Assembly: GCA_011772205.1 (NCBI GenBank)
Contig: WVZY01000077.1
Coordinates: 9,145 to 73,144, forward strand
Length of the DNA stretch: 64,000 nt
Origin: Candidatus Latescibacterota bacterium
Lineage (GTDB): Bacteria; Krumholzibacteriota; Krumholzibacteriia; WVZY01
Reading direction: 5' to 3'
The notes beneath the pieces are model-generated. The model was not told the origin of the DNA. It saw nothing but the letters and a program-made list of their open reading frames with translations, and ran no database searches. Below are positions 9,491 through 36,365 of the stretch, piece by piece. A program made the translations under genes and the position numbers. Numbering within the stretch: the stretch's first letter is position 1; every line of letters starts with the position of its first letter.

Positions 9491-9496
9491 AGAATT

Positions 9497-10361: not shown

Positions 10362-11183
10362 TTACTCTCTTTTTTCCAGCCTGCAGATGACGGATCCGGT
10401 GAAGAGCTCTCTCAGCACCGGCACGTAAGTGAAGAGCTTCAGAACGCCGAATTTTGCAGGCTTGAACTGTTTATACGTCAATCGAACCGATGGATGCCGT
10501 TTTACGAGCCGAAAGAAGCGCCTCACGCTCATGCGATTCAGATCTCTGTCGAACGATCGCATGATTCTCTCTGCTTCGCGGCTGGACTCCTGCTTTGACA
10601 TTCCAGGATGTCGAGAGGTCACCACATGCTCGATCGCTCCGTGCAGGTGCCGCCGCGAAAACAAGAGGTGGCACCACGGTATATAAATATAATCATAAAG
10701 ATGGGACCCAAGGGGTGAAAAATATGGGGTATAAAAGACCCAGATGGCTCCTCCCTTCCTCGTGACGCGCACCATCTCGGAGAACGCTCCTTCCGGATCC
10801 TCGAAATGCTCCATAGTGTCGCTCGCAACGACGGTGTCGAAGGCTCCGCCTGTCACGGGCAGCCTGGCGGCATCCCCAGTAAAAAAGCCCCAAACGAAGG
10901 GGCGATTGCTTTTTCCTGCGTATGAAACGCTCGCTGATGCATACTCGGCTGAAATATCGGTCCCAAACACAGCCAAGGCACCGCCTTCCCCTAAAGCTAC
11001 CGTTTTCCCGCCGAGTCCGCAGCCTATGTCTAATAGCTTTTTACCGCTAAGGTCCCCGGCTGGTTCCATATATAATCGTGCCAGCTCGCAGCCCCATCTG
11101 TACTCCCATTCGGCATAGGCATCGGTGGACTCCCGGCCTTCCACCCGGGGAGGCCGGAACCATTTGTTTATATAATTGATCAA
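10362..11183 (-). CDS. Class I SAM-dependent methyltransferase
   Basis: LLDIGCGLGG, GDAARLP, FDTVV..DTMEH; start placed at TTG11183 to avoid overlap with the ABC gene. Confidence 0.85.
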   Translation of the reverse strand: MINYINKWFRPPRVEGRESTDAYAEWEYRWGCELARLYMEPAGDLSGKKLLDIGCGLGGKTVALGEGGALAVFGTDISAEYASASVSYAGKSNRPFVWGFFTGDAARLPVTGGAFDTVVASDTMEHFEDPEGAFSEMVRVTRKGGAIWVFYTPYFSPLGSHLYDYIYIPWCHLLFSRRHLHGAIEHVVTSRHPGMSKQESSREAERIMRSFDRDLNRMSVRRFFRLVKRHPSVRLTYKQFKPAKFGVLKLFTYVPVLRELFTGSVICRLEKRE

Positions 11184-11202
11184 CCGTACCAATCGATCCC
11201 TT

Positions 11203-12318
11203 CTACGAATCGCTCGCAGGTTCGGTGTCGATCCGCTCCCCATTCGCTTTGGAGAAGAAATGGAGCCGGTCCGGGTCAACGAAAACCGCCGTGCGGCCCT
11301 CTTTATCCACCTGAAACCGCTCCTTTCCCCTGGCCACCAGCTCGGCGGTGCCGATCTTGAGGTGCGTGAGGGTCTCGTGTCCCAGCGGCTCGGTAAGCAC
11401 GATGTCGCCTTTGAGGTCAACACCCCGAGGATCGCTATCCGAATGATATGGCCTGACATGCTCAGGACGAACACCCACGAGGAGCTCGTCCTCCTGGCGC
11501 CGCAGCCGATCTGCCAGATCGGGCGGAATGGGCATCCGGATATCCTCGCCCAGCTGCAAGGTGCTTTGCGTCGGATCCAGCCTCCCCTTGAGAAGGCGCA
11601 TTGGGGGACTCCCAAGAAACGTTGCCACGAACGTATCTCTCGGTGATTGATAGCATGCTTCCGGGGTGCCCACCTGATGGATCTTTCCCTCGCTCATTAC
11701 AACGAGCATCTCGCCGATGGTCATCGCTTCGACTTGATCGTGGGTGACGTATACGGTGGTCACCTTCAGCCGTTGGAACAGTTTCTTGATGGTATACCGC
11801 ATATCCACGCGCAGCCGCGCATCGAGGTTCGAAAGCGGCTCATCGAAGAGAAACACCTTCGGCTCCCGGATGATGGCCCGGCCGAGGGCGACGCGCTGGC
11901 GCTGTCCGCCCGAGAGTTCGCCCGGTTTCCGGTGCAGCAGCTTGTCGATCTCCAGCGTCCGCGACACCTCTTGCACGCGCCGCTGGATGCTGGCCCGGGG
12001 CATCTTGCGCAACCGCAGCCCGAACGAGAGGTTTTCCCCGACCGTCATATGGGGATAGAGGGCATAGCTCTGGAAAACCATGGCCACGTCCCGTCTCCTC
12101 GGTTCCAACGTGTCCAGCCGCTTGCCGCCTAGATGGATCTCCCCGCGGGTTGGCTTTTCCAGGCCGGCGATGAGCCTCAGGACGGTAGTTTTGCCGCAGC
12201 CGGACGGCCCAACGATGACGGCCAGCGTGGGGCCGGGAATGCGGAGATGAAAATCGGACACCGCCACCACGCCGTTGTCATAGACCTTTTCCAAATGTGA
12301 AAAATCGAGGTCGCTCAT
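11203..12318 (-). CDS. Sugar ABC transporter ATPase (MalK/UgpC/MsmX type) with TOBE domain
   Basis: GPSGCGKTT, VFQSYALYPHMTV, LSGGQRQR, FLFDEPLSNLD. Confidence 0.95.
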   Translation of the reverse strand: MSDLDFSHLEKVYDNGVVAVSDFHLRIPGPTLAVIVGPSGCGKTTVLRLIAGLEKPTRGEIHLGGKRLDTLEPRRRDVAMVFQSYALYPHMTVGENLSFGLRLRKMPRASIQRRVQEVSRTLEIDKLLHRKPGELSGGQRQRVALGRAIIREPKVFLFDEPLSNLDARLRVDMRYTIKKLFQRLKVTTVYVTHDQVEAMTIGEMLVVMSEGKIHQVGTPEACYQSPRDTFVATFLGSPPMRLLKGRLDPTQSTLQLGEDIRMPIPPDLADRLRRQEDELLVGVRPEHVRPYHSDSDPRGVDLKGDIVLTEPLGHETLTHLKIGTAELVARGKERFQVDKEGRTAVFVDPDRLHFFSKANGERIDTEPASDS

Positions 12319-16043: not shown

Positions 16044-16394
16044 TTAATCTATGTGGCCGGTCTCCGGAGGAAAGTGCCTCGTCTCGAGAAGATTCCCATC
16101 ATCATCGAACCAAAACTCGAGACCACGGCTGTAATATTTCCACCGCTCGGTTTTCTCGCCACAGAAACTGAATCTGAGACGATGCGGCGTGTAGCCGTAT
16201 TCGTCAAATATGGCCAGCTTGTCGCCCTTTAGATTCTCTCGCAGCGAAAACCGCCGAGCGTATTTCCGGCCTTTCTTGCCCCTTAGGTAGGTTACGCCGG
16301 AACGTTTGAACTTAACGTAATCCCGTCCTAGAGCGAACGTGTCCCCCGCCAAGAACAGAAAGACACAGGCCAGTAATAGGACCCTGATTCTCAT
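16044..16394 (-). CDS. Small exported protein with possible SmpA/BamE-like C-terminal domain
   Basis: Signal peptide; GYTP...ERWKYY...FWFDDDGNL; own SD and promoter. Confidence 0.6.
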   Translation of the reverse strand: MRIRVLLLACVFLFLAGDTFALGRDYVKFKRSGVTYLRGKKGRKYARRFSLRENLKGDKLAIFDEYGYTPHRLRFSFCGEKTERWKYYSRGLEFWFDDDGNLLETRHFPPETGHID

Positions 16395-16467
16395 AGCCGT
16401 TGTCTCCTTGATGCAGTTGCCAAAGTTGCGGGCTATTTAGGGGGTGGGCCATTCCTCAAGACACCTT

Positions 16468-16497
16468 ATTATACCATATTTGGAGCCACGGTGGCAA
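16468..16497 (-). promoter_or_regulatory. Sigma70 promoter with extended -10
   Basis: TTGCCA-18nt-TATAAT, TG at the extended -10 position. Confidence 0.6.
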
Positions 16498-16695
16498 GGG
16501 CTTGAATGGGGCTTCCTTATGCGGAGAAACGAGGTTTGGAGGGCTCCAAAAAGGAGGATTTTTCCGGGCAGTTTCTTGCGATTGCCAGCTCCGAGGGGAT
16601 CTGTTTTTGCATCTGCTTTTCTCGAAAAAATACGGACTTATCGGATATTTATCGCGTTTTCGCCAACATCACGAAATGCTTGCGAGATGGTTTGC

Positions 16696-19600
16696 TTACT
16701 TTAGCAATATCATCTTTCTTGTTTTAACAAACTTCTTCGTTACGAGCTTGTAGAAATACACGCCGCTCGAGACCGGCTGTCCTGCATCGTTGCGGGCGTT
16801 CCAGCCTTTGGCATATTCACCCGCGGGATTCTCCTCGTTTACCAGCGTCTTCACCAGCTGCCCGGCGACGTTGTAGATTTTCAACGTCACATGGGCCCGT
16901 TCCTTGATCGAGTATTTGATTGTTGTGCTCGGATTGAATGGGTTCGGGTAGTTCTGGGCGAGGCTGTTTGTATAGTAGGGGGTGGCGTCTGCGCCTGAAG
17001 GATCTTCGACGGGTAGGCTAAATAGATGCCGCAGGACACTGACCAGGTGATCCACACGATCAGGCACTCCTGCAGGAACATCGTCACGGATATAATGGAA
17101 GCTAAAGCCTGAGAGGACCACGGCAACCGGGTTGCCCAGCGCGTTCAACGTGTCGTACGCCACAACGGCACCGTCGTTCGCAGCGCCCGAGCCCCCGTAC
17201 GTCATCTCCAGGGTCGTGCTCGCGACCGGCCGGATCACATCGAAGTCATTGATGCCCGGACAGCCGCCGTAGACAACGATCGTGTCTTCCTCGAGTGGAA
17301 CACCGTGATCGAAGATCCCGCCATCCTCACCGATCACCAGCGGCGATATAGAGAAGCTCACCGTGTGATCATCGTCCACCAACTGGTACGGAATGTACGT
17401 GCTGATGAACTGGGACGAGGACGGATTCGTCAGCGTTTCCCATTCTGAGGCCATGTTATCGCCGGAGAAGTAGATACCGGCTCCTACTGGGTCCGGATGC
17501 TGATCCATGAAGAAATAGAGCATCGCGAAGTCATCCGTCTCGTTCGCGCTCATGTCACCAACCGTACCTCTGTTGAGGTTACCGGAGTTCCAGATAATCT
17601 TCCGGTAGTTCGGGAATAGCTGGTTTTGAACACTCCACATACGACCTGTAAGACCATTTCCGACCAACGAAGACGGCCCGCGCTTATCGAAGCGGTCGAC
17701 CCAGTCCATGATCCCTATCATCTCGAACGCGGAATTGAAGTATGGCTCGGCACCTCTGCCGCTGAATTGATCAACATATAGGATGTTTCCGCCGTATCCA
17801 CTGGGCAGGATCTGCATCTCCATCGGGGCCGCGCAAGCCTCTTCGATATCGTCCACTGTGCCGGTGAATTGGCTCCACCACGTCGAAGTCACGTTGGCAT
17901 CCGTCGCACCGAAAAAGAACCACAAGGTGTCTCCGTTGGTGAAGAAATGATCATTCACATCGATGCAAAACCTGTCAGGCGCAGGACCGGTGCGAGGACC
18001 GCTATGCTCTGTAAAACACGTGTCGAGACGGAACTGATACCACTTCCGGCTGCCACAGATCACCGAGTCGACAACCGGCCAGCGATAACTATCCTCCACG
18101 ATCTTATCGAGCGGCATCGGCTTGCTCTGAGGATCGCGGGAGAGATAGAAATAAACCGCAGATCCAAAACCGGTGTTCGGATCGCTCCCGAGGCCAAATG
18201 TCGGCTCGCTCACGGTAATGATTGCCGAGTCACCCGGTACATTATGTCCATCTAGATAAGATGTGATGTCGATCGCCGCACCGATTCTGGCCGTCCCAAG
18301 GGAGTCACCCCCCTCGGGAAAGGTATCGTTGAAAAGATCGATGTCTCGAACGCTGAATTGCGGACCCGTTACTCTGACCCGGATGAACCTCACGTTGTCG
18401 TAAAGAGGCCCATGCCTATGGCAGTCGGGTGGCTGGTAGGAATTGCAATAGAAACCGCACAGATCATAGCACCCGAGCGCGAGCTGTATCTGTTCAGCTC
18501 CCGGATCTATCAAGTCTGCATAACTTTCAATCCATCGATGCCACCTTGGACCGTATCCGAAATTAATCCAAGCACGATCTCTCCAGTCTCCAGGGCAGCC
18601 CCCAATCCAGGTCCGGGCATGCCAGATAAAAGCGACCAATTCGGTGAAGGGATTGTCTTCGTATACGTCTATTTCGAAATACGCAGCATCTGCATCAGAT
18701 GGAACGGGACTGCCGTAAATGTCCGTATCCCAATCAATGAGCGGCGACCAGATCTCATTCGTGAGATAAAGCATTCCTCCATCCACTTCCTTCCCATATG
18801 GCACCGCTTTCTGTGCGGGATGGCCGGCACAAGCCATGTCGACCGTCGATCCCTTGAAGAATCCCCACAGAAAAGAGAGATTGTGCACGCAGGGATCTTC
18901 TTGGAGGACGGCACTTCCAGGGAACAGCCCCGCAAAATCCCCGTATGCCAGTTTGGCGTCTGCGTACCAATCTCCATCGGCTGTTGCCGTATCCCCAACC
19001 GCTTCCGATTCGAAATCCTGGTAGTCGAGCGTGCTCGCAGTATCCGACACGAGGATGCTGTCGATGACGATCGCTCCATCGGAGTTATACATCCCATCTT
19101 GATCGGACCAGCCAGTATCGGAGTCAAAGCGGAAACGAAATATCACCGAACCATCGAGCGAGTCTGCCGGTACGGTCAGGTTTGCCGTGATGTCCCCGTC
19201 TCCATCCAAAGCGAGCAAGTCAACCCATGCACCGTCCTTATTTCTGTATTGAACATACGTGTAGTCGCAGTATGGCTCGGTATCATGATGTGCTTTGAAG
19301 GAGAGTGTCACATCGCCGCTGGTTGCAAATTCAACCGACTGGAACCGCTGGCCCCATGAATTTCCATACCCGGGCAGTTTCTTGTACGAGCAGAGATAGG
19401 TATCCGAGGCATTCGGCCTGGCGCCGCACCACAGGGACTGGTTCCCTTCGATTGGCACCAATCCGCCAAAGTCGCCACCATTCAATCCTGAAAAATCGTC
19501 CACATGGAAAAACACTCCCATAGGAGCTGTGAGATCAACGCCGAACCAGCCCTGCGGATCAGCCATGCCCGGGCCATCAAAATCAAAATCTGCCAGCACA

Positions 19601-19788
19601 AATGTTTCCACAACAGCTGTAGCGAAAAGCTCCCTCGCATCCAGCGGCATGTCGCTTCCTGTGTTGTACTCGTGAAAGATGTATCTCTTAGGGCTGCTCT
19701 TTTCAGGAGCCTTTCGCGCGAAGCTCCCCCAGGAAACCAGCATCAATGTCAACACCGCAATAAAAAGGCAAATCCATCGCCGTTTCAT
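16696..19788 (-). CDS. Large secreted Cys-rich protein, paralog A, with C-terminal FlgD-Ig/T9SS type A-like sorting domain
   Basis: AAGGAGG SD; signal peptide; MAM/InhA-like FRFRFDSD...GAIVIDSI; C-terminal LAQNYPNPFNPSTTI...SSGVYFY...KMILLK. Confidence 0.88.
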   Translation of the reverse strand: MKRRWICLFIAVLTLMLVSWGSFARKAPEKSSPKRYIFHEYNTGSDMPLDARELFATAVVETFVLADFDFDGPGMADPQGWFGVDLTAPMGVFFHVDDFSGLNGGDFGGLVPIEGNQSLWCGARPNASDTYLCSYKKLPGYGNSWGQRFQSVEFATSGDVTLSFKAHHDTEPYCDYTYVQYRNKDGAWVDLLALDGDGDITANLTVPADSLDGSVIFRFRFDSDTGWSDQDGMYNSDGAIVIDSILVSDTASTLDYQDFESEAVGDTATADGDWYADAKLAYGDFAGLFPGSAVLQEDPCVHNLSFLWGFFKGSTVDMACAGHPAQKAVPYGKEVDGGMLYLTNEIWSPLIDWDTDIYGSPVPSDADAAYFEIDVYEDNPFTELVAFIWHARTWIGGCPGDWRDRAWINFGYGPRWHRWIESYADLIDPGAEQIQLALGCYDLCGFYCNSYQPPDCHRHGPLYDNVRFIRVRVTGPQFSVRDIDLFNDTFPEGGDSLGTARIGAAIDITSYLDGHNVPGDSAIITVSEPTFGLGSDPNTGFGSAVYFYLSRDPQSKPMPLDKIVEDSYRWPVVDSVICGSRKWYQFRLDTCFTEHSGPRTGPAPDRFCIDVNDHFFTNGDTLWFFFGATDANVTSTWWSQFTGTVDDIEEACAAPMEMQILPSGYGGNILYVDQFSGRGAEPYFNSAFEMIGIMDWVDRFDKRGPSSLVGNGLTGRMWSVQNQLFPNYRKIIWNSGNLNRGTVGDMSANETDDFAMLYFFMDQHPDPVGAGIYFSGDNMASEWETLTNPSSSQFISTYIPYQLVDDDHTVSFSISPLVIGEDGGIFDHGVPLEEDTIVVYGGCPGINDFDVIRPVASTTLEMTYGGSGAANDGAVVAYDTLNALGNPVAVVLSGFSFHYIRDDVPAGVPDRVDHLVSVLRHLFSLPVEDPSGADATPYYTNSLAQNYPNPFNPSTTIKYSIKERAHVTLKIYNVAGQLVKTLVNEENPAGEYAKGWNARNDAGQPVSSGVYFYKLVTKKFVKTRKMILLK

Positions 19789-20091
19789 CAGCTTCCTCCT
19801 TATTGAAGAGAATCACCCATGAATTTGAAAAGCAGTAACTCCCGTATTCCCCGCCAAATGAACTTGTACTCCTTGCTGGAAATGATGGAATCAACATTTC
19901 GCGGGCTGCAGTTCAATGCGAGGCGCTGTATGAAGTCGCGGCAGTGATGTAAAGAAAAATGAGAGAAGAGATCAGTCGGTGAAGCAATCCAGGTAGTCAA
20001 CGAGAATGCACCTCGCACCCTATGTTTGCAGGTGCGCGGGAGAGGTGCACGACAGAACATCTGCCTTCCCCCCCAGGTAGTCGGCTGATTC

Positions 20092-20123
20092 ATTATATTA
20101 CCATAGATTACTTTAATTTTCAA
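20092..20123 (-). promoter_or_regulatory. Sigma70 promoter for paralog A
   Basis: TTGAAA-17nt-TAATAT with TG extension and an overlapping TATAAT. Confidence 0.6.
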
Positions 20124-20325
20124 GGAATCACTTAATTCGCAGCGCCCTCGACCTCCTGCGAAAAAATCTCCTTGTCCTGCTCCAGCGACATCCCTCAGAA
20201 TCCCCACGTAAGAGCCGATCTCACAGGCGTCTGAGCCCTGACAGAGGTGCTCGACCTCCTGGCCGGCTTCTTGCAATCAGAAAAATGATAACCCATTGTG
20301 AATAAAAATCATCCAGTAGTCAGCG

Positions 20326-22137
20326 ATGCGTGAAAACCAGCATAACGCTTCCCTTGAGAGTGACTTTACGCTCGAAGCCGTGGCCGGCGCGCTCGGGCGC
20401 TCCGGTTTTCTCAGCCTCCCGCAAATCAAAGAGATATCCAAGTCTTCCGTCGTGAAGCGAGCACACCTCAGGAACAAGCTCAAAACCAAGGAGTCCGATA
20501 AGCCTTTCGTGTCACCGGTCGAGATCATTGCCGAATTTGGCTTTCCGAGCACGAATCCCCGGCGGGATCAAATGGACGAAGCCGAGATCTGCGAGGCGCT
20601 CTCTAGAACGATGAATGTCCCGTTCGTTCGGATCGATCCTCTGAAGCTCGACGTAAAAAGTGTTTGCAGCATCGTTTCCAAACCGTTTGCCCGAAAACAT
20701 CTTCTCGTCCCCATCAAGATCAAAGGCGGGGCGCTCACCGTTGCCATGGTGAATCCATTCGACCGCGAAATGATCAACAGCCTCGAAGACGTTACCGGCT
20801 GCACGGTGGTGCCCGTACTCGGGATGAGGAGCGAGATTCTAAAAACGATCAACGAGGTCTTTGCGTTCGAGCACAGCCTGATGAAAGCAGAGAAGCTCCG
20901 GGATGCCGGCTATGACCTGGGAAATCTCGAACAGCTCGCCGAAATGATGACCGAGGAGGAAATCGACGCCTCCGATAAACACATCATCAAAGCCGTCGAC
21001 CTGCTATTCCAGTATGCATATGAACAGCGGGCGAGCGACATCCATCTCGAGCCGAAGAGGGACAAAGGCGTGGTGCGCCTTCGAATCGACGGCAGGCTCC
21101 ATGACACCCACTCGATTCCCAAAAAGATCTACCCTTCTTTCGTTTCTCGAATCAAGATCATGGCACGGATGGACATCGCTGAGAAGCGCAAGCCTCAAGA
21201 CGGACGCATCAAAACGAGCTCAAAAGATGCCGAGGTGGAGCTCCGTGTTTCCATTGTTCCCGTCGCATTCGGGGAAAAGATCGTCATCCGCATATTCGAT
21301 CCCAGCGTTCTCATGCAGGATCTCTCCTCGCTCGGGTTTTTCCCCGATCAGCTGGAGGCGTTCCAGAGATTTTTACACCGTCCATACGGCATCATCCTCG
21401 TCACCGGACCGACGGGGAGTGGGAAAACGACGACCCTTTACTCGGCGCTTCGGTATCTGTCGAATCCGGAAGTCAACATTACGACGATCGAGGATCCCAT
21501 CGAGATGATCTATGAGCCGTTCAATCAGATCGCCGTTCAGTCCCAGATTGGCATCACGTTCTCCACCGCTTTGAGGAACGTCCTCCGTCAGGACCCGGAT
21601 ATTATTATGGTCGGAGAGATTCGCGATCGAGAGACGGCCGAGTATGCGATCCAGGCGGCTCTCACGGGCCATCTGGTTCTTACGACACTCCACACGAACA
21701 ACGCCGTTGGAGCCGTTACGCGGCTTACGGACTTGGGAGTGGAACCGTTTCTCATTGCATCTACGGCTCTCGGTGTGATTGCCCAGCGCCTTGTCCGGAT
21801 GGTGTGCAAAGAGTGCGATGTTCCCGCCCAGATCTCTGAAGAAGAGAAACGTCTCCTTTGCCTAGAAGATGACGTTGATCTTTCTAACTTGCGCGCAGGA
21901 AAAGGATGCGAGAAGTGCCGCAATACGGGCTATAAAGGACGCACAGGGGTTTACGAAGTTTTGGAAGCAACGGAGGAAATTCGCCTGCTAGTCAGGGACT
22001 GTGCGGATGAGAAGGACATCGAAAGAGCTGCGCGGCGCTCTCAGATGAGACCGCTCCTCTCGAGCGCGATAGAGAATCTCATTGCCGGAAAAACGACGGT
22101 TGAAGAGATTTTGCGCGTCGTTCCGCTGGCCGGATAA
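20326..22137 (+). CDS. GspE/PulE/PilB-family secretion or pilus ATPase
   Basis: ASDIHLEP, RKPQDGRI, GPTGSGKTT, TIEDPIE, LRQDPDIIMVGEIRD, TGHLVLTTLH, CKEC/CEKC zinc site. Confidence 0.95.
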   Translation: MRENQHNASLESDFTLEAVAGALGRSGFLSLPQIKEISKSSVVKRAHLRNKLKTKESDKPFVSPVEIIAEFGFPSTNPRRDQMDEAEICEALSRTMNVPFVRIDPLKLDVKSVCSIVSKPFARKHLLVPIKIKGGALTVAMVNPFDREMINSLEDVTGCTVVPVLGMRSEILKTINEVFAFEHSLMKAEKLRDAGYDLGNLEQLAEMMTEEEIDASDKHIIKAVDLLFQYAYEQRASDIHLEPKRDKGVVRLRIDGRLHDTHSIPKKIYPSFVSRIKIMARMDIAEKRKPQDGRIKTSSKDAEVELRVSIVPVAFGEKIVIRIFDPSVLMQDLSSLGFFPDQLEAFQRFLHRPYGIILVTGPTGSGKTTTLYSALRYLSNPEVNITTIEDPIEMIYEPFNQIAVQSQIGITFSTALRNVLRQDPDIIMVGEIRDRETAEYAIQAALTGHLVLTTLHTNNAVGAVTRLTDLGVEPFLIASTALGVIAQRLVRMVCKECDVPAQISEEEKRLLCLEDDVDLSNLRAGKGCEKCRNTGYKGRTGVYEVLEATEEIRLLVRDCADEKDIERAARRSQMRPLLSSAIENLIAGKTTVEEILRVVPLAG

Positions 22138-22384
22138 AATTCGTTCGTCCACTATCCGGATACGCACCCTACGGCCTATTGCTTGGCAAAGACGATACGA
22201 CCACTGGCTGCGTAAACTTCGCACAATCGCTGGGCAGGCAAACACCATACAGCCGCTGTCCGGGCAAGCAAAACTTATAGATGCGACAATACGAAGGGGC
22301 ACTCCGCGCCTCAACATCTCGCTGAAATCGCGTCGTACCCCCTCGCACGATCTTAACCAGGCAAATCTTCCCTCTGCTCTCCCC

Positions 22385-25300
22385 CTACTTCAAAAGTATC
22401 ATTTTCTTCGTCTGCGTGAAATTCTTCGTCACAATTCTGTAGAAGTACACGCCACTGGAGACCGGATTGCCCTCGTCGTTGCGGCCATTCCATCCCTTGG
22501 TGTATTCTCCCGCAGGCTTCTCCTCGTTCACCAGCCTCCTCACCAGCTGACCCGCCACGTTGTAGACCTTCAAGGACACATGCGCACGCTCCTTGATCGA
22601 GTACTCTATGGTGGTAATCGGATTGAACGGGTTCGGGTAGTTCTGGGCGAGGCTGTTCGTGTACCGTGGCGTTTCGCCAATTCCCGTGGGATCCGAGGGA
22701 AATGATACCAGGTGCCGGATGATATCGACCAAATGATCGTCACGATCCGATAGCGGTGCAGGAACATCGTCGCGGATGTAGTGGAAGCTGAATCCAGAGA
22801 GTACTACGCTGACCCGGTTCCCCAGTGCGTTCAACGTGTCGAACGCCACAACGGCACCGTCGGTGGCCAAACCTGTACCACCATAGGTCATCTCCAGACT
22901 CGTTCCTCCTGCCGGCTGAATCACATCGAAGTCATTGATCGTCGGACAGCCGCCGTAGACAACGATCGTATCTTCCTCGTCCGGCACACCATGGTCGAAG
23001 ATTCCTCCATCCTCGCCAATCACCAGCGGCGACTTGCCGTGGCTGCCGGTATGATCGCCGCTGACCAGATTGTGCGAAATGAACTTGTTGATGAAGGCTG
23101 ACGAGGAGGGATTGGTCAAGCCGGCCCATTCCTCGGCCATGTCATCACCGGAGAAGTAGATCCCTTCCATGGTCGGATTTGGATGCTGATCGAGGAAGAA
23201 GTCGAGCATCGCGAAATCATCCGCTTTAATATTGGAGCCATCCCCCACCGTCCCGCTGGAAAGATCTCCCGAATTCCATATGATCAGTTGGTAATTCGGG
23301 TGGAGCTGCTGTGCAACGTCTCGCACGTGATATCCTAAAGCATCTGCCGATAAAGGACCCACAAATGCACCACGCTTATCGAATCGATCAACTAGATGAT
23401 CGATCTCCAATATTTCAAACGCGGAATCAAAGTATGGCTGAGCTCCACCAGCGTTGAATTGATCGACATAGAGAATATCTCCCCCTCTCGCCGGACCTGC
23501 ACCTGGGAGAATCTGCATCTCCATAGGCGCCGAGGCAGCCTCTGCGATATCCCATGTCGTACCGGATCCCTGACTCCAGTAGGTTTCCTCGCCCAATGTG
23601 TTCTCAGCACCAAAGAAGTAGTACAGCGTATCGCCGTTTGTAAAGAGGTGGTCGTTTACATCGATACAGAATCCGTTAACGCGGATGGATACGCACGAAC
23701 CATTGGACCTGGTACAAGCCGTATCGCAACGGAATTGATACCATTTCGTGCCGCTAATGACCGTTGAATCGACCAGAGGCCAGCGGAAGCCGTCTTCTTC
23801 CAGCATATCCCCCATTTTCCCTGGCTGGCTCGGTGGATCGATTGAAAGGTAGCAGTAGACGGCCGAGCCAAATCCGCTTTTCGGATCGGGCTCCTTGAGA
23901 CCGGCGTCCGGATCGTAGCAAGTTACAACCGCTGAATCGCCAGGTATAATGTTTGGGTCACTATAGGCTATATCGTGCGCCGCATCGATACGACCTGTTC
24001 CTAAAGATGTCCCATTCTCGGGGAACGTATCCTGGAAAAGGTCTAAGTCACGGGCACTCCACTGGGGGCCGTTCGTCGAAATACGCCGGATCTCGACATT
24101 ATCGAACAGCGGCGAATGGCTGTGGCAGGGATCGAGAGAACCGTCAAAAAACCATTGCATATCCACAACGCCCAACGCAATCTGTATGTGAGAAGCGCCC
24201 GGATCGATATATTCACCTAAGGTGTAGGTGCTTCTGGACCAATCCTTGCGGGGACCATAGTAGATTCCAGATCCCTGGTCTTTCCACTGACCGGGACATC
24301 CATCTTTCCAGGATCGAACGTCCCATGTGTAATAGACGTAGAGGCCTGGCAGATCCCGGTACACATCGAACGATAACTCGATTGTCGATCCAACTCCGGC
24401 CAGAGCAACCGGTGGTGACCAGATCGAATTAGTGATGTATTGGTCATACTCGTTCTTTTTTGGAACCGCAATCTGTTCGGGGTGGCCGCCACAAGCGTAG
24501 GTTTCAGTAGATCCCATGATAAACGCCCACATGCAGCTGTAATTCCAATGGCAGGGATCTTCCTGCAGCAACGCTGAGCCTGGAAAGAGACCGGCAAAAT
24601 CCCCGTACCCTGACTTTACGCAGCATTCCCAGTCGCCGTCCGTGGTGGCCAGATCGCCAGGGGACTCATCCTCGAAATCCTCGAAGTCATAAGTAGTGAG
24701 AGCCGTCTGTACGGTAATGCTGTCAACCAGTACGGCCCCGTCCGTGTTCAAGAAGCCGTCTTGATCTGAATACGCACCATCGGATCCGAAGTGGAAACGG
24801 ATTTTTACGAAACCATCGTGTCCAGCAGGGATGGCGTCGGTCCGCAGCTGTTTGCTCCCAGTACCGTCGAATGTCGCGATGTTAACCCAATCATCACTGG
24901 CGATATCATCAATGTTTTCTATGGAGTCGCACGAGGTATTCGTCGCATATTCGAGGTATGTTTGGTCAAATCCCCCTTCAGAATCCCACGCGATGAGATA
25001 GCTGATAGCAATCGCCTCAGTATCCGGCACCTCAATACACTTGAAGCACCACCCTTGATCCCAGTCGTTTCCATACCCAGGCAGTGCGGCGTAGACACAT
25101 AAGACAGGATCTGCGGTATCCGGCCGCGCGCCGCACCAGGCCGATTGGTCGCCTTCCAAAGGCACTAGGAGGCCGAAGTCCCCTCCGTCAAGACCTGTAA
25201 AATCATCGACATGGAAGTAGCAGCCAAGTGCTGCTGTCCAGTCTTGACCGGTCCAACCTTCGTTCGTACAAAACACACCTCCCACATCAAATGTCCAGGA

Positions 25301-25507
25301 GCCAAGGATGACCGTGTCCGCCTGTAAGTATGACCTGAGTCCCTGCTCTTCCAAAGGACGATCCAAATCCAGGACGCTTAAAGGCTCTGGCTGTATTTCC
25401 CAGTTGGCTGGATTTCGCTCTTGAGAGACTTTGCGCGCAGATAGAAGCGATGCTAGCAAAGAGATCATCACCAAAGCGAACAACGTTTTTCTCGTGAAGG
25501 CGCTCAT
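22385..25507 (-). CDS. Large secreted Cys-rich protein, paralog B, with C-terminal FlgD-Ig/T9SS type A-like domain
   Basis: AAGGAGG SD; colinear with paralogs A and C; NYPNPFNP...KKMILLK. Confidence 0.88.
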   Translation of the reverse strand: MSAFTRKTLFALVMISLLASLLSARKVSQERNPANWEIQPEPLSVLDLDRPLEEQGLRSYLQADTVILGSWTFDVGGVFCTNEGWTGQDWTAALGCYFHVDDFTGLDGGDFGLLVPLEGDQSAWCGARPDTADPVLCVYAALPGYGNDWDQGWCFKCIEVPDTEAIAISYLIAWDSEGGFDQTYLEYATNTSCDSIENIDDIASDDWVNIATFDGTGSKQLRTDAIPAGHDGFVKIRFHFGSDGAYSDQDGFLNTDGAVLVDSITVQTALTTYDFEDFEDESPGDLATTDGDWECCVKSGYGDFAGLFPGSALLQEDPCHWNYSCMWAFIMGSTETYACGGHPEQIAVPKKNEYDQYITNSIWSPPVALAGVGSTIELSFDVYRDLPGLYVYYTWDVRSWKDGCPGQWKDQGSGIYYGPRKDWSRSTYTLGEYIDPGASHIQIALGVVDMQWFFDGSLDPCHSHSPLFDNVEIRRISTNGPQWSARDLDLFQDTFPENGTSLGTGRIDAAHDIAYSDPNIIPGDSAVVTCYDPDAGLKEPDPKSGFGSAVYCYLSIDPPSQPGKMGDMLEEDGFRWPLVDSTVISGTKWYQFRCDTACTRSNGSCVSIRVNGFCIDVNDHLFTNGDTLYYFFGAENTLGEETYWSQGSGTTWDIAEAASAPMEMQILPGAGPARGGDILYVDQFNAGGAQPYFDSAFEILEIDHLVDRFDKRGAFVGPLSADALGYHVRDVAQQLHPNYQLIIWNSGDLSSGTVGDGSNIKADDFAMLDFFLDQHPNPTMEGIYFSGDDMAEEWAGLTNPSSSAFINKFISHNLVSGDHTGSHGKSPLVIGEDGGIFDHGVPDEEDTIVVYGGCPTINDFDVIQPAGGTSLEMTYGGTGLATDGAVVAFDTLNALGNRVSVVLSGFSFHYIRDDVPAPLSDRDDHLVDIIRHLVSFPSDPTGIGETPRYTNSLAQNYPNPFNPITTIEYSIKERAHVSLKVYNVAGQLVRRLVNEEKPAGEYTKGWNGRNDEGNPVSSGVYFYRIVTKNFTQTKKMILLK

Positions 25508-25687
25508 TTCCCGACCTCCTTCAAGAAATGATTGTGATGATAATGAAATAAGGGATAGAAGAGGAAGAATTCTTGTAGCGGGCTTCTTTGAAGATTAAAG
25601 ATCTCCACAAGCCGTTCCGGATCACGGGACAGGATCCAAATAGGACTGGGCTTGTGGGTCACGCAACGAAACAAGACCGCCGCCCCC

Positions 25688-25736
25688 GTTCAATAATTGA
25701 ACTATTTTTTGTATCATATAATTCCGCAAAATTCAA
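25688..25736 (-). promoter_or_regulatory. Promoter for paralog B with a 7-1-7 palindromic operator candidate
   Basis: TTGAAT-17nt-TACAAA (TG-extended); GTTCAAT-A-ATTGAAC at 25688-25702. Confidence 0.45.
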
Positions 25737-25923
25737 TCATATAAGACGCTAAATTCTTGGCTCGTCCTGCCCTGCAGTCATCTTATTAAATCAGAAACTT
25801 ACTCGATCCTAACTGCTTACCACGTAGGCGATTTCCTGCATCCCATGCATTCAATCATCAAAAAAACGTGGGCCTGTGAGTCAATCACCGGCCCTGGTTC
25901 CATCCCTCGATTCGAATCCATTC

Positions 25924-28900
25924 TTACTTCAAAAGTATCATCTTCTTCGTCTGCGTGAAGTTCTTTGACACAATTCTGTAGAAGTACACGCCGCTGGAAA
26001 CGGATTCACCCGCATCACTGCGGCCATTCCATCCCTTGGTGTATTCTCCAGCAGGCTTCTCCTCGTTCACCAGCGTCCTCACCAGCTGACCCGCCACGTT
26101 GTAGACATTCAAGGACACATGCGCGCGCTCCCTGATCGAGTACTTGATCGTCGTACTCGGATTGAACGGGTTCGGGTAGTTCTGGGCGAGATCGTTCGTG
26201 TAGTGCGGTGTATCGCCTGCTCCAGTTACATCGGGAAGAGTATGCCTGAGAAAATGGAGAATGTCCCTCAAATGATCAATGCGATCTTTTACTCCCAAAG
26301 GAAGCCCATTATCTCGAATGCAGTGGTAGCTGAATCCGGAAAGCACCACCCCGATAGGATTCTCGAGCGCGTTCGTCGTTTCATATGACACCACGGCACC
26401 GTCGGTTGGATCATTCGTGCCGCTGTACGTCATTTCGAGATTTGCGCCGCCTAACGGCTCGATCATGTCGAAATCATTGATGATCGGGCAGCCGCCATAG
26501 GCAACGATCGAGTCGACACCCCAATAATAAGTGTCGAAGATCCCGCCAACCGTGCCCGCCACCAGCGGCGACACGTCATGGTTTACCGTATGGTCGCCCG
26601 TGACTAGGTTGTGCGGGATGAATTTGTCGATGAATTGAGTCGAAGAAATCCCCGTCAATTCCACCCACTCCTCGGCCATGTCATCACCGGAAAAGTATAT
26701 TCCAGCACCTATTGTGTTTGGATGCTGATCGAGGAAGAAGTCGAGCATCGCGAAGTCGTCCGTTTCGTTCGCGCTCCCATCGCCTACCGTTCCATGGGCT
26801 AGGTCCCCCGAGTTCCAAATGATCGTTCTATAAAACGGATGCAGTTGGTTCCCGATGTTGACGACACGGCCGGCAAGCCCGTTCCCAGCCAGCGAGGATG
26901 GTCCCCGCTTATCGAAACGGTCGACCTGCTCCCAAATCCCTGATTCCATGAGCGCCGTGTCGAAAAACGGCTGAGCTCCTCTCCCACTGAAGTTGTCGAC
27001 GTAAAGGATGGTCCCGCCTCTCGCCGGACCAGCACCCGGCAGAATCTGCGTCTCCATTGGTGCGGCGCAAGCTTCATTGATGTTGGCACCAATCCCGGAG
27101 CCCTCGCTCCAGTACGTCGTGTTCGCACCCGCATCGGTAGCACCAAAGAAGAACCATAGAGTGTCCCCATTGGTGAAGAAGTGGTCGTTGACATCGATGC
27201 AAAACCGGTCGTAGACCGCTCCCATCCGTGGGCCGGAGCGCCCAGAAAAGACCGTATCGCATCGGAACACATACCACTTCCGCCCATCGCAAATGACCGA
27301 ATCCACTACCGGCCAGCGGAAGCCATCCTCCACTATTTTATCGAGCGGCATCGGTTTGCTACGAGGATCGCGGCAAAGATAGAAGTAGACGGCAGGTCCG
27401 AATCCGGTATAACCATCGATCCCAATGCCCAACTCTGGCTCGCTCACCATCACAATTGCCGAGTCACCAGGAACATTGCTCCCGTCAAGATACTGTGTAA
27501 TATCGATCGCCGCATCAACTCGCCCCGTTCCAACGGCCTGTCCATTTTCAGGGAACGTGTCATTGAAAAGATCGATGTCCCGGACGCTCCACTGCGGGCC
27601 GACTGTGGAGATGCGCCGGATGATGACGTTATCAAAGAGTGGAGAATGACTGTGACACTCCCCTGGCGAACTAGAACTGCACCATAAAGGACACATATCG
27701 ATAACACCAAGTTGGACCTGAAGGTGTGAAGCCCCGGGCGCAACCAGATCTCCCACCCAGTTAACGGATGTCGCCCAATCCTTATGTGACCCATAATAAA
27801 CGAAGCCCCGACCCTTCCAATGACTCGGACAATCATCGACGATGGACCGAATATGCCATGTATAGTAGATTAAGCTTGGAATGGGGAGATCTCGATAAAC
27901 ATCGAACACAAATTCAAAGTGGGATCCGGTACCAGTGATGGCCACCAATGGGGAGCGGATGGCGTTGTTTATGTACTGACCCTGTTCGTTCCCTTTCGGG
28001 ACTGCCAGCTGCGCTGGAAATCCGCCGCACGCATATGATTCCGTGGAACCGTTGACGAACGCCCACATGCACGTGAGATTCAACTTGCAGGGGTCTTCTT
28101 GGACCAGAGTAATTCCCGGGAAAAGACCGGCAAAATCGCCAAAGCCGGACATTATACAGCATTCCCAGTCGCCATCCGTCGTGATGAGATCACCTGGAGA
28201 TTCATCTTCAAAATCTTCGAAATCATAGACGGTCAGCGCAGTTCGAACGGTGATACTGTCAACAATCACCGCACCATCTGTGTCCCACAAACCATCCTCG
28301 TCGGACCAGGCAGCATCGGACCTGAAACGGAATCGAATCTTCACATGACCCTCATGTCCTGCAGGGATGGTGCCGATCCTCAATTGTTTGCCCCCAACAT
28401 CGTCGAAGGTCGCTAGGTTGACCCAATCATCGCCAAGGATATCATCTATGTTCTGCAAGGAGTCACATGTGCTCTTTGTCGCATACTCGAGGTATGTGCA
28501 GTCAAATCCCGGTTCAGAATCCCAGGCGATGAGATAGCTGATGGCAATCGCCTCGGTATCCGGAACATCGATGCACTTGAAACACCAACCCTGATCCCAT
28601 GCATTTCCATATCCCGGAAGCTTGGCGTAACCACACAGGATCATGCTTGCCGTATCCGGTCGAGCTCCGCACCAGACTGATTGGTTGCCCTCAAGAGGAA
28701 CTAAGTTACCGTAATCACCGCCGCCCAGACCAGCGAAGTCGTCGACATGAAAATAGCAACCGGATTGCTCCGTAAGATCATGCGTCGTCCAGCCTTGAGC
28801 ATCGCACACAAGACCTGAATCGAACGTCCAATAGGCTAACACAAGCGTGTCCGCCAGAGCGGCAGATCGAGGAACCAGCACACCCGAGTGGTAATCCATA

Positions 28901-29037
28901 TCGAGGGGGGTGGAATTATCGAGCCGCATTTTGGCACGCCCCGAGTTCGGACCTACTGATGCCTCCCTCGCCATCGCCGACGCTATCGATACGGCAATGA
29001 CGATCATCATCCCGAACATGAAAGCTCTTTTCTTCAT
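25924..29037 (-). CDS. Large secreted Cys-rich protein, paralog C, with C-terminal FlgD-Ig/T9SS type A-like domain
   Basis: GGGAGGG SD; colinear with paralogs A and B; NYPNPFNP...KKMILLK. Confidence 0.88.
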   Translation of the reverse strand: MKKRAFMFGMMIVIAVSIASAMAREASVGPNSGRAKMRLDNSTPLDMDYHSGVLVPRSAALADTLVLAYWTFDSGLVCDAQGWTTHDLTEQSGCYFHVDDFAGLGGGDYGNLVPLEGNQSVWCGARPDTASMILCGYAKLPGYGNAWDQGWCFKCIDVPDTEAIAISYLIAWDSEPGFDCTYLEYATKSTCDSLQNIDDILGDDWVNLATFDDVGGKQLRIGTIPAGHEGHVKIRFRFRSDAAWSDEDGLWDTDGAVIVDSITVRTALTVYDFEDFEDESPGDLITTDGDWECCIMSGFGDFAGLFPGITLVQEDPCKLNLTCMWAFVNGSTESYACGGFPAQLAVPKGNEQGQYINNAIRSPLVAITGTGSHFEFVFDVYRDLPIPSLIYYTWHIRSIVDDCPSHWKGRGFVYYGSHKDWATSVNWVGDLVAPGASHLQVQLGVIDMCPLWCSSSSPGECHSHSPLFDNVIIRRISTVGPQWSVRDIDLFNDTFPENGQAVGTGRVDAAIDITQYLDGSNVPGDSAIVMVSEPELGIGIDGYTGFGPAVYFYLCRDPRSKPMPLDKIVEDGFRWPVVDSVICDGRKWYVFRCDTVFSGRSGPRMGAVYDRFCIDVNDHFFTNGDTLWFFFGATDAGANTTYWSEGSGIGANINEACAAPMETQILPGAGPARGGTILYVDNFSGRGAQPFFDTALMESGIWEQVDRFDKRGPSSLAGNGLAGRVVNIGNQLHPFYRTIIWNSGDLAHGTVGDGSANETDDFAMLDFFLDQHPNTIGAGIYFSGDDMAEEWVELTGISSTQFIDKFIPHNLVTGDHTVNHDVSPLVAGTVGGIFDTYYWGVDSIVAYGGCPIINDFDMIEPLGGANLEMTYSGTNDPTDGAVVSYETTNALENPIGVVLSGFSYHCIRDNGLPLGVKDRIDHLRDILHFLRHTLPDVTGAGDTPHYTNDLAQNYPNPFNPSTTIKYSIRERAHVSLNVYNVAGQLVRTLVNEEKPAGEYTKGWNGRSDAGESVSSGVYFYRIVSKNFTQTKKMILLK

Positions 29038-29258
29038 GCCATGCCCTCCCTGCTTAAGTGAGCAAAAAATGAAGATAACAATAGGTCGGCTGCGAAGGAA
29101 TACCGCTTAGATAGAGCGGTCTTAGCGAGAATAAGAAAAGCGGACATAGGACCCCTATTCGTAGGAGCAAGTGGGAATGCTCACAAATACGGACGGTAGG
29201 TTATTCGGCTTGCGCGGACGAATATGACCCTTGCCACAGCTTTCATATTGAGGTGTTT

Positions 29259-29287
29259 ATTATACCATAAATTTTAAGGACTTACAA
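29259..29287 (-). promoter_or_regulatory. Sigma70 promoter for paralog C
   Basis: TTGTAA-17nt-TATAAT with TG extension. Confidence 0.7.
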
Positions 29288-29468
29288 GTATAAGATCAAC
29301 TCAACGGGGGGAAGCTCCAAAAGCAGAATCGATGAAAGAAGGCAGAAAAATGAAGAATAACAACCTCCATAAAGAAAAGCGTTCGCAATCGAACGCCACA
29401 AGCCTTGAAAACGATTGAGGGGGGAAATATGCTGCGATTTAAATTATAATCAGCTATGTCAGTGGATC

Positions 29469-30059
29469 TTAGTCCTCCCACCTGGTGATCTTGTCGTTTA
29501 CCACATAAATATATTTGCTTCGGTTCCCTACTTTGTAGATCCATTGTTCCTCTTTATGCCCGCCAATTTCATAGGATTTGATCTCTGTGGGGATGCCCCA
29601 CGATTCCAAGGCCGCTTCGGCGTCCATGCCTATGAACACTTCGTGGTTTCGTATTGCACGTCCCGTCTTCTTCCCCCATTTCCTGATATATTCCACCTGG
29701 CGGAGCATCGGATCCTTGAACCAGAAGATATCGGCTAATCTGCTCTCAATCTTCTCGACAGTTAGCGGCCTTTCAACTTCGAGTCCGTGCACAATTTTTT
29801 TTCTCTTCGGACCCTTAACAGTAACGGATCCATTCATGTGGAAGTCCAGGTCGATGATTTCCACTTTTGTATCCCTTTGCACGATACCGTGCTGGCTGAG
29901 ATCTTCGAGTATGATGCGGGTCCAGGCCTTTTTATTTTTGTACTTCTTGATCAGTGCTTCCTGCTTCTCTATCGGAATATCCTTGATGATCGCATGCTTG
30001 ACCGATGAGCAGCTGAAAAGAACCAATATGAGAGGTAGAATCAACTTCTTCATCATCAC
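29469..30059 (-). CDS. Lipoprotein with C-terminal SmpA/BamE-like domain
   Basis: Lipobox LFSC; IGMDAEAALESWGIP...EQWIY...YIYV. Confidence 0.7.
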   Translation of the reverse strand: MMMKKLILPLILVLFSCSSVKHAIIKDIPIEKQEALIKKYKNKKAWTRIILEDLSQHGIVQRDTKVEIIDLDFHMNGSVTVKGPKRKKIVHGLEVERPLTVEKIESRLADIFWFKDPMLRQVEYIRKWGKKTGRAIRNHEVFIGMDAEAALESWGIPTEIKSYEIGGHKEEQWIYKVGNRSKYIYVVNDKITRWED

Positions 30060-35199: not shown

Positions 35200-36276
35200 A
35201 TGCTCTATAGAACAAGGGAATCGTTAAGCATCTACTCAGGAGCCAATGAGGGGGCGCCATTGAATCTCGGATATGTCAAGTACGCGAGAGTCGGCTTGAG
35301 CTATCTCTTGAAAAGCACCGAGCTGCCCGCCGGAAGAACCCTGGGCATCACCGTCGAGCCCACCAACATCTGCAATCTCCGCTGCATTTACTGCCCCCAG
35401 AGCGATGAGAAAAACCATTTCATAAATGGCAGGGGCTTCATGAAGTATGAAACCTATAAAGTGATATTGGATAACATCTTATCTGATTTTACCCCACGAT
35501 TTGTTTCTCTTCATAGGGATGGCGAGCCCCTCTTGAACAAGGAATTGGATAAGTTCATCGAATATACCGTCTTAAGAGGGATCCATACGGGAGTGTCGAG
35601 CAACTGCACAATGCTGGATCCAGAGAGAGCCCGGCGCCTACTGGATGCGGGCCTCGGTTTCATCAAAACGGACTTCTGCGCAGATGAATACTTGTTCGAA
35701 AAGCTCCGTGTTGGAGGCAACTGGAAAGCAACCTACGAAGGAATGACGACCATACTCGAGGAGGCAAAAGAAAGCGACATCCGGTTTCAAATGAACATAA
35801 CGGATCTGAGCACACACGAAGTCGCTGATGAAACGGCCAGAACGAACATGGAGAAACTCCGGGAGCTTTTCTCGAAGTTCGAGAAGTCCGTGTCCATATC
35901 GAAAGTGCATTTTCATAACGCGCTCGATGAGAGCATCGAAATAATGACCAAAGACGATTACAAGAAGAACCACAGAACGTATACCTTGTGCCATCACCCA
36001 TGGGTGCATATCGTTGTGGACTTTCGAGGCAACGTCGTTCCCTGCTGCAGAGATCTGCGCAGCGAATATATCTGCGGCAACCTGCTCAAAACCACAATGA
36101 AGGAGATTTGGAATAACGACCGTTTTATCCGTTTGAGAAGAGCTCTGGCGGAACGGAAACCGGAAGAAATCAACATATGCGCTAAGTGCGACCTGCCGTA
36201 TCGAGGGAGCTACTCCGGGAAGAACGCCGTGTCGAAAATTTCGAATATATTGTTTTCGAGAACATGGAAGAGGTAA
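35200..36276 (+). CDS. Radical SAM protein with SPASM/Twitch domain
   Basis: CNLRCIYC, GEPLL, CHHPW...VPCC...CAKC. Confidence 0.9.
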   Translation: MLYRTRESLSIYSGANEGAPLNLGYVKYARVGLSYLLKSTELPAGRTLGITVEPTNICNLRCIYCPQSDEKNHFINGRGFMKYETYKVILDNILSDFTPRFVSLHRDGEPLLNKELDKFIEYTVLRGIHTGVSSNCTMLDPERARRLLDAGLGFIKTDFCADEYLFEKLRVGGNWKATYEGMTTILEEAKESDIRFQMNITDLSTHEVADETARTNMEKLRELFSKFEKSVSISKVHFHNALDESIEIMTKDDYKKNHRTYTLCHHPWVHIVVDFRGNVVPCCRDLRSEYICGNLLKTTMKEIWNNDRFIRLRRALAERKPEEINICAKCDLPYRGSYSGKNAVSKISNILFSRTWKR

Positions 36277-36365
36277 TCCGAGGCCGGAAATCGTGAAGCC
36301 ACGACGAAGAATAGTATAATGAAGGAAGATAAGCCGTGCCGGAATGAATGGATTTGTGCCGGTTC

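Follow-up and report, generated by a model that had tools for sequence, protein, structure and literature searches.

Type IX secretion system (T9SS) cargo crosses the inner membrane by Sec, and the described proteins of this kind that come closest to those reported here are the Kgp and HagA adhesins of P. gingivalis, which pair a Sec signal peptide with a type A C-terminal sorting domain (CTD). Our subject is a set of three paralogs, A, B and C, encoded in a stretch of 64,000 nucleotides (the window) from a Candidatus Latescibacterota bacterium; the window is contig C71:9145-73144 within a 4.13-Mb, 81-contig assembly (G000) that is 96.5% complete, and the gene for an ATPase of the GspE/PilB superfamily lies between A and B. 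(G, C and L are our labels for genomes, contigs and loci, f and g for taxa.) Like Kgp and HagA, the paralogs carry both the Sec signal peptide and the type A CTD, and their jelly rolls resemble the K1 domain of Kgp. Unlike them, they have no protease domain, show no detectable sequence similarity outside the CTD, contain an extra domain with the fold of class I glutamine amidotransferases (GATase1), and belong to a different, uncultured phylum, with GldL and GldM not found. The paralogs are T9SS type A cargo with adhesin-like modules, a known kind of protein; the family, with about 900 residues that lack a Pfam or NCBIfam model, and its combination of domains appear to be undescribed. We favor, with some confidence though well short of certainty, the view that these are T9SS-sorted adhesins or substrate-capture proteins that have expanded in their lineage, and that the ATPase is not part of the system.

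Other described proteins are also like the paralogs in some respects. InhA, of the M6 metallopeptidases, is one: the first jelly roll is best matched by the MAM-like domain of InhA2 (4yu5_A residues 482-632). The model NF052323 ('T9SS-dependent M6-like inactivated metalloprotease') is of similar length, at 1043 positions, and also ends in a CTD, but it matches the family only at the CTD, with 27-31 bits against a cut-off of 600 bits. An M6-like or other HExxH peptidase was considered and rejected, as A, B and C contain no HExxH and the 46 family members scanned have no Peptidase_M6 match. The likeness to animal MAM-Ig modules (RPTP mu, meprin alpha and beta, Eph) is at the level of fold only, with 7-12% identity; the family, by contrast, is bacterial and T9SS-sorted, and the range of Z scores is explicable by the common jelly-roll arrangement. 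A 2016 survey reports the T9SS only in Bacteroidetes (PMC4793230), and a 2017 study notes many duplicated Por-CTD genes in genomes treated under MGII, SAR406 and SAR202, not for Latescibacteria (PMC5596340). Full-text searches found no paper that brings 'type IX secretion' together with 'Latescibacteria', or 'T9SS' together with 'Latescibacter'.

All three genes lie on the minus strand. Paralog A (P0001, 1030 aa; 16696-19788) occupies a slot between the ATPase gene, from which it is divergent, and a small conserved gene, s116. Paralog B (P0002, 1040 aa; 22385-25507) is the copy used for the structure model, and paralog C (P0003, 1037 aa) is the open reading frame (ORF) at 25924-29037. These ORFs agree exactly with the original prediction, which had been made from the DNA letters and had proposed three colinear paralogs of 1030-1040 aa, 56-63% identical by our alignments: B and C align with A from end to end at 56-57% identity, and with each other at 61-63%. 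Direct DNA repeats of 67-88% identity, most alike at the CTD-coding end, run among the three genes and confirm their paralogy. Each protein also has the predicted signal peptide, as read from the sequence: a basic n-region comes first, then a hydrophobic stretch and a site like A-x-A. Conserved cysteines, another predicted feature, are present, in that 14 columns of an alignment of 46 homologues contain Cys in at least 50% of sequences; but with 16, 21 and 24 Cys per protein, about 2%, the content is not extreme.

The proposal that each gene has its own promoter found no confirmation. Sigma-70-like matches are no commoner than in shuffled sequences (16 versus 12.4 +/- 4.0), and they sit upstream of A and C only. 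With 416-537 bp between genes, separate transcription is possible, though the gaps do not prove it. The upstream regions of 11 family genes share no motif beyond the AGGAGG ribosome-binding site, and Rfam gave no match at E<=0.1 between positions 15500 and 30500 of the window.

We modelled paralog B with AlphaFold2 from a 46-sequence alignment (1040 aa; mean predicted local distance difference test score, pLDDT, 82.7), modelled its residues 298-662 separately (pLDDT 80.8), and compared the fold of the full model with 48,161 PDB representatives. From sequence and predicted structure, the architecture reads, in order, as a signal peptide, two MAM-like domains, a beta-sandwich, an alpha/beta domain of GATase1/ThuA-like fold and the T9SS type A CTD. 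The Sec-type signal peptide, read from the sequence, occupies residues 1-24 (25436-25507; this and the following domains are on the minus strand), and in the model a helix at residues 6-21 is followed by a disordered linker with pLDDT below 50. Jelly roll 1, which is MAM/InhA-MAM-like, spans residues 62-297 (24617-25324). Over the model range 105-297 its best match is 4yu5_A, the MAM-like domain of Bacillus anthracis InhA2 (Z 14.2, root-mean-square deviation (rmsd) 2.4, 141 residues aligned), and the next matches, at Z 10-11.6, are MAM domains, Eph ligand-binding domains, carbohydrate-binding modules (CBMs) and the gingipain K1 adhesin. Jelly roll 2, also MAM-like, spans residues 298-478 (24074-24616), ends with an invariant C461-H462 motif, and matches meprin alpha (7uab_A; Z 10.2, rmsd 2.6, 131 aligned) and EphA3 (4l0p_A; Z 9.6). 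Against the jelly-roll heads, the 'cleaved adhesin' domain of gingipain K1 (4itc_A) scores Z 10.9 and 8.6.

The beta-sandwich, residues 479-660 (23528-24073), has a weak fold assignment: its best matches are the amylase N-domains 1izj_A and 9ivz_A, at a weak Z of 7.6. It carries a conserved Asp-rich motif (D616, D619, D626). The top Foldseek match to residues 298-662 is 2c9a_A, the MAM-Ig region of RPTP mu (E 6.3e-5); a Foldseek search with the whole 1040-residue model returned only multi-domain jelly-roll matches with rmsd of 19-45 A, and we set it aside as unusable. The model shows nothing but beta structure across residues 62-660, and no metallopeptidase-like domain there. There follow the alpha/beta domain at residues 661-948 (22664-23527), a class I glutamine-amidotransferase-like fold assigned by its match to 3rht_A, and the CTD at residues 949-1040 (22388-22663), assigned by TIGR04183, PF18962 and a fold match to 6za2_B.

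The MAM/InhA-like domains named in the original prediction are thus borne out at the level of fold (4yu5_A, 7uab_A), but not at the level of sequence: PF20773 (InhA-like_MAM) matches two of the 46 members, with a best E of 0.027, and PF00629 is not among the matches listed. In A, B and C, Pfam and NCBIfam match only the last 80 or so residues, the T9SS type A CTD. The same holds across the family, where Pfam recognizes only the CTD in 46 of 46 members, with no match outside it at E<=0.01. Sequence searches of the PDB, with a single protein and with a profile, likewise matched only the CTD, at E of about 0.04 and weaker.

The family is large and modular. When searched without its CTD, the body of the protein found 750 representatives of 50%-identity clusters in an exhaustive search, 336 of them at E<=1e-30, and at least 413 proteins at E<=1e-3 in a word-indexed search of up to 8000 candidates. 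Nearly all of the matches listed are about 1000-1090 aa long and carry a CTD, and their source names are nearly always hypothetical. Two portions of the body, an N-module (query residues 35-455) and a C-module (265-925 or 455-925), are each found without the other in proteins of different architecture. Among 27 relatives scanned with Pfam, the C-module sits behind SBBP, LVIVD, BNR, FG-GAP and beta-helix heads, and also behind a subtilase S8 domain and behind a matrixin M10 domain with a GEVED head; Kelch repeats follow it in one relative. The N-module precedes beta-helix or DUF7619/PKD bodies. A search for loci seeded with the CTD motif found 77, spread over many phyla of the Fibrobacteres-Chlorobi-Bacteroidetes (FCB) group, and 76 of them share only related CTDs; L016 alone has part of the N-module, and these loci yielded no synteny for the family.

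Within the phylum, 163 of 208 genomes have a family match at E<=1e-20, in a tally that scored at most four candidates per genome. The matches are found in all genomes of taxa f1 (12/12) and f2 (23/23), in most of f7 (41/43) and f8 (6/8), and in none of f3 (0/7); in f9, 62 of 91 genomes have a match, mostly a weak one. Copies often stand in tandem arrays, such as those on G174:C8 (four copies) and G196:C13 (three). In the genome from which the window comes, intact full-length copies number six (C71 has three; C11, C73 and C69 have one apiece), and there are also two broken copies (C33 and C9), three modular relatives (1351 aa on C6, 862 aa on C25 and 1232 aa on C59) and one weak partial match on C34. 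The family is thus expanded, as had been proposed. Of the broken copies, the one on C33 (G000:C33:20567-23735) is split between two frames and the one on C9 (G000:C9:161798-164926) is interrupted by a single in-frame TAG; a sequencing error is possible in both.

A 40-copy tree built by a quick maximum-likelihood method puts all seven copies from this genome in one clade (SH-aLRT 100), implying that the window genes are either a within-lineage expansion or a set homogenized by gene conversion. The six intact copies become more alike towards the C-terminus, with mean pairwise identities of 57% and 52% in the jelly rolls, 61% in the sandwich, 65% in the alpha/beta domain and 77% in the CTD. Surface proteins of uncultured FCB-group phyla are mostly annotated by their sorting tail alone. 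One abundant family now has a domain map over about 900 residues that Pfam and NCBIfam leave uncovered; its two halves are reusable modules, and it reaches eight copies in a genome.

The tail of the paralogs, with its NYPNPFNP motif, is a T9SS type A CTD, as the original prediction had suspected. TIGR04183 scores 44.3, 44.5 and 43.6 bits on A, B and C (cut-off 23), and PF18962 scores 30.1, 33.7 and 33.6 bits (cut-off 27). In the model (residues 948-1040) the CTD folds as an Ig-like beta-sandwich that matches the CTD of PorU (6za2_B; Z 10.4, rmsd 2.8, 89 aligned). In the same genome, 108 ORFs (minimum length 60 aa) match a profile of the family CTD at E<=1e-3. These CTD-bearing ORFs reach 4537 aa, so that the description of the paralogs as 'giant' is only relative. 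A search for sprA, porU, porV and gldLM, which had been suggested as a check, succeeded in part. SprA (C64:259185-263402) scores 504.2 bits summed over its matches against a cut-off of 200, and PorU (C8:177772-181104) scores 552.9 bits against 420; a PorV-like barrel ORF adjoins PorU and, at 123.4 bits, is below the cut-off of 250. GldL and GldM were not found.

From the presence of this sorting domain and of these components, by analogy with described T9SS cargo, we infer that the three paralogs are probably exported through the bacterium's type IX secretion system. They would pass the inner membrane by Sec; folding would take place in the periplasm, with disulfides formed and Ca2+ probably taken up at the Asp-rich motifs. 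The CTD would then take them through the SprA translocon, and its removal by PorU would lead to release or to anchoring on the cell surface. In that position both distal jelly rolls may bind glycan or protein ligands, with the sandwich and the alpha/beta domain forming a proximal body. The proteins would act as adhesins or substrate-capture proteins, diversified by gene duplication. The ATPase, on this account, would be a resident of a housekeeping block in which family copies have been repeatedly gained, duplicated or lost.

Three observations weigh against this picture. First, about 20 polar residues of the alpha/beta domain are strongly conserved among 219 homologues, more than a pure spacer would seem to need, and they would fit an enzyme or a cofactor or metal site. 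Second, in a genome that is 96.5% complete, TIGR03517 and PF12081 (GldM) gave no match and TIGR03513 (GldL) reached only 19.8 bits against a cut-off of 68.3, although these models were built on Bacteroidota and may miss divergent homologues. As neither GldL nor GldM turned up, we extrapolate from Bacteroidota in supposing secretion by a canonical T9SS. What energizes this T9SS-like system may have diverged or may be something different, and the energizing parts of T9SS-like secretion outside Bacteroidota merit a targeted look. Third, a family copy lies divergently beside the ATPase gene in 8 of 20 ortholog loci, in one more as judged by coordinates, and in the window. This recurring divergent pairing, together with the single clade formed by the f2 copies in that position (support 99), makes a regulatory link through the shared intergenic region possible.

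The first of these points leads to the alternative that survives best, which we consider doubtful but worth keeping in mind: that the paralogs are surface-displayed enzymes, in which the GATase1/ThuA-like domain is catalytic, for example as a hydrolase, the jelly rolls hold a polymer, and the paralogs are specificity variants. The alpha/beta region that had been picked out in the sequence is real. Residues ~675-940 match 3rht_A (Z 15.1, rmsd 3.1, 203 aligned), STM3548 (2gk3_A, Z 14.0), the ThuA-like 4jqs_A (Z 13.0) and the N-domain of IFT52 (5fms_A, Z 12.4), the top GATase1-like matches aligning 201-208 residues at rmsd 3.1-3.6; 1o1y_A, 1kxj_A and 2ywj_A match at Z 10-12. The fold superfamily includes real enzymes, GATases and ThuA-like proteins among them. 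Conservation also argues for catalysis. Across the 219 homologues whose domain is near-complete, identity reaches at least 85% in 44 columns, many of them Asp, His, Cys or Arg, and the conserved polar residues include E663, D682, D707, R708, D710, Y739, W744, D764, D788, H819, D846, C854, D861, D913, R922 and H925. Jelly rolls of this type are often CBMs on glycoside hydrolases (GH families), and the module is also fused to S8 and M10 peptidases.

Several results speak against an enzyme, however. Neither HExxH nor any other recognizable catalytic motif is present in A, B or C, in agreement with the original prediction, and Pfam, NCBIfam and PDB sequence searches gave no full-length match to a characterized enzyme family. 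No enzyme model of Pfam or NCBIfam matches any of the 46 members at E<=1, or the other proteins that were scanned. At the putative nucleophile elbow, placed by secondary structure alone between a strand at 781-787 and a helix at 790-795, stands Asp788 (88% conserved) instead of Cys. The family is like the non-catalytic members of the GATase1-like fold (3rht, 2gk3, the ThuA-like 4jqs, 1t0b and 4e5v, the middle domain of GH42 enzymes, IFT52) in fold only; it has no link to them at the level of sequence, and the canonical Cys-His-Glu triad was not identified in it. Accessory domains of GH42, GH151 and GH164 enzymes match the fold too. In those enzymes the copies of this fold are non-catalytic middle domains, and the fold is often non-catalytic. 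As for possible relatives of the domain, ThuA (PF06283) has no match anywhere in the genome, comparison of the domain profile with the genome's GldG-like protein by hhalign gave a probability of 0.1%, and the best ESM Atlas score for residues 660-945, 0.87, was to unnamed clusters and below the level of a lead.

Cys854, His819 and His925 are nevertheless conserved in the alpha/beta domain. A bolder version of the enzyme idea, which we think rather unlikely, would make the GATase1-like core a new class of T9SS-displayed enzyme, with an Asp/His/Cys site in place of Cys-His-Glu and served by a T9SS without recognizable GldLM. On this version the tandem MAM-like modules might aim the core, and the domain would have been shuffled onto many heads across the phylum.

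A structural role, already raised in the original prediction, in which the paralogs would be subunits of a surface layer or coat like the T9SS-secreted TfsA and TfsB of Tannerella, is improbable. It would suit T9SS type A cargo of similar size made of all-beta modules and one alpha/beta domain, a fold that serves oligomerization in GH42 enzymes. Against it stand eight divergent copies in one genome, about 52-65% identical in the body domains, the frequency of gain, loss and pseudogenes, and the shuffling of the modules with many heads; nor does any S-layer protein appear in the lists of sequence and fold matches. Divergent copies, turnover and shuffling are all more easily squared with a family of binding proteins that diversifies than with the subunit of a lattice.

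The ATPase gene brings us to the last alternative, that of a functional pair. P0004 (603 aa; 20326-22137, plus strand) lies between A and B, separated from A by a 537-bp gap from which the two genes diverge, and convergent with B. It is an intact member of the GspE/PilB superfamily, as proposed, with PF00437 (T2SSE) at 429.9 bits and an MshEN N-domain (PF05157) at 65.6 bits; its sequence also contains motifs that we take to be Walker A, Walker B, the His box and the tetracysteine motif. In domain composition it is like GspE, PilB and TfpB. Unlike them, it is below every equivalog cut-off (TfpB 647.5 versus 850, GspE 534.4 versus 630, PilB 534.3 versus 676) and has no cognate platform gene nearby, nor an adjacent pilin or secretin gene, so that 'lone' describes it well. 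It is the second such paralog in the genome, 42% identical to the canonical PilB on C8. That contig carries the genome's one type IV pilus set, with PilB, PilT and the only T2SSF gene (PilC) together, and also its only secretin gene. No cytoplasmic traffic ATPase is known to participate in the T9SS.

Orthologs of P0004, 60-73% identical, occur in most genomes of the order and are essentially confined to it: at E<=1e-140 they are found in 26 of 208 genomes, with none of 43 in f7 and one of 8 in f8. We fetched 20 ortholog loci, up to 20 kb each, and searched them with the window genes and the family profile. In all 20, the gene lies in a syntenic block, with a methyltransferase, an ABC ATPase, an aminotransferase, an amidohydrolase, s116 and the slot on one side, and on the other the ATPase itself followed by lipo196, UPF0102, rnhB, rplS, trmD and, further on, ffh. 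A family copy, always divergent from the ATPase, fills the slot in eight loci (G201, G177, G186, G189, G180, G190, G192 and G178), and G173 has one as judged by coordinates. The G190 slot holds two full copies, and that of G201 a full copy and a 581-aa ORF that matches only the N-module. In nine loci s116 and the ATPase gene are both visible with no family copy in the slot (G197, G202, G198, G199, G184, G182, G194, G181 and G188). G174 has about 6 kb without a family match between s116 and the ATPase, and two of the 20 loci end at contig edges. The slot can be filled in one genome and empty in another of a single genus, as in g7 (G201 versus G202) and g16. In the tree a single clade unites the slot copies of f2, a pattern in keeping with vertical inheritance and losses; those of G201 and of the window cluster instead with copies from elsewhere in their respective genomes. 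Copies between the ATPase gene and lipo196, where B and C lie, occur nowhere else among the 20 loci.

The tandem copies in the G190 slot (L138; G190:C5, 11443-14604 and 16814-19901) are near-identical, with end branches of 0.018 and 0.031, and this pair beside the ATPase is a very recent duplication.

Synteny of the ATPase with the family had been proposed as a test of their association. The adjacency does recur, in 8 of 20 loci, but it does so because a conserved block has a variable slot and is not specific to these two genes; the locus is a worked example of recurrent adjacency explained in this way. The distribution of the two genes across genomes agrees. Four f7 genomes (91-97% complete) and the f1 genome G200 (95%) have a canonical PilB next to PilT and no P0004 ortholog, G032 having one further PilB-like paralog at 41% identity; four of these five nonetheless have near-full-length family matches, and in the fifth, G053, the match covers the C-module. 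Conversely, a family copy is absent from the slot in 9 of 20 loci that contain the ATPase. Neither the ATPase nor the family needs the other at the level of the genome, and a dedicated role of the ATPase in export or assembly, as suggested in the original prediction, is not supported. In the same genome as the window, no T2SSE gene was found among the 50 neighboring ORFs scanned at the eight other family loci; their neighbors are CTD cargo, Ser/Thr kinases with TPR, peptidases and housekeeping genes.

That the ATPase and the divergent family copy form a functional pair, through export help, through co-regulation by the 537-bp region or with the ATPase replacing GldLM, is accordingly the least probable alternative and a very improbable one: the recurrent divergent pairing, the f2 clade and the missing GldL and GldM speak for it, but the whole neighborhood down to rplS, trmD and ffh is syntenic, in nine loci no family copy separates s116 from the ATPase, the ATPase ortholog keeps to one order while the family extends to f7 (41/43) and f8 (6/8), the four f7 genomes and G200 have only a canonical PilB (G032 apart), the other family loci lack a T2SSE gene in their scanned parts, and the single T2SSF and secretin genes both lie on the pilus contig C8.

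Two small genes frame this region. On one side of the slot, s116 (16044-16394, minus strand) encodes a small secreted protein of no Pfam or NCBIfam family and is present in 16 of the 17 fetched loci whose sequence continues past the ATPase on that side for 300 bases or more. On the other, lipo196 (29469-30059, minus strand) is a lipoprotein-like ORF, also of no Pfam or NCBIfam family; it is the immediate tail-to-tail neighbor of the ATPase gene in relatives; the window has paralogs B and C between the two. Across the order, s116, the ATPase and lipo196 keep their positions as a trio beside UPF0102-rnhB-rplS-trmD.

Elsewhere in the window, the longest ORFs of the methyltransferase (10362-11615, minus strand) and the ABC ATPase (11203-12318, minus strand) overlap by 413 bases, which implies that the true start of the methyltransferase is probably further downstream. 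ExbB and a TonB-like gene lie at 8876-10357. The stretch 35200-37163 (plus strand) contains a radical SAM/SPASM gene and, after it, a 271-aa ORF without a Pfam family; the two could be a peptide-maturation pair. At other family loci of the genome, pairs of Ser/Thr kinase genes, three of the four with TPR, adjoin the C9 copy (L158, 1082-7488) and the C59 relative (L161, 3174-7068), which could be chance or a regulatory link. Finally, the C33 family copy is directly followed by genes for an ABC ATPase, an ABC-2 permease and a GldG-like protein (PF09822, DUF7088) at 11769-15697 of L157 (G000:C33).

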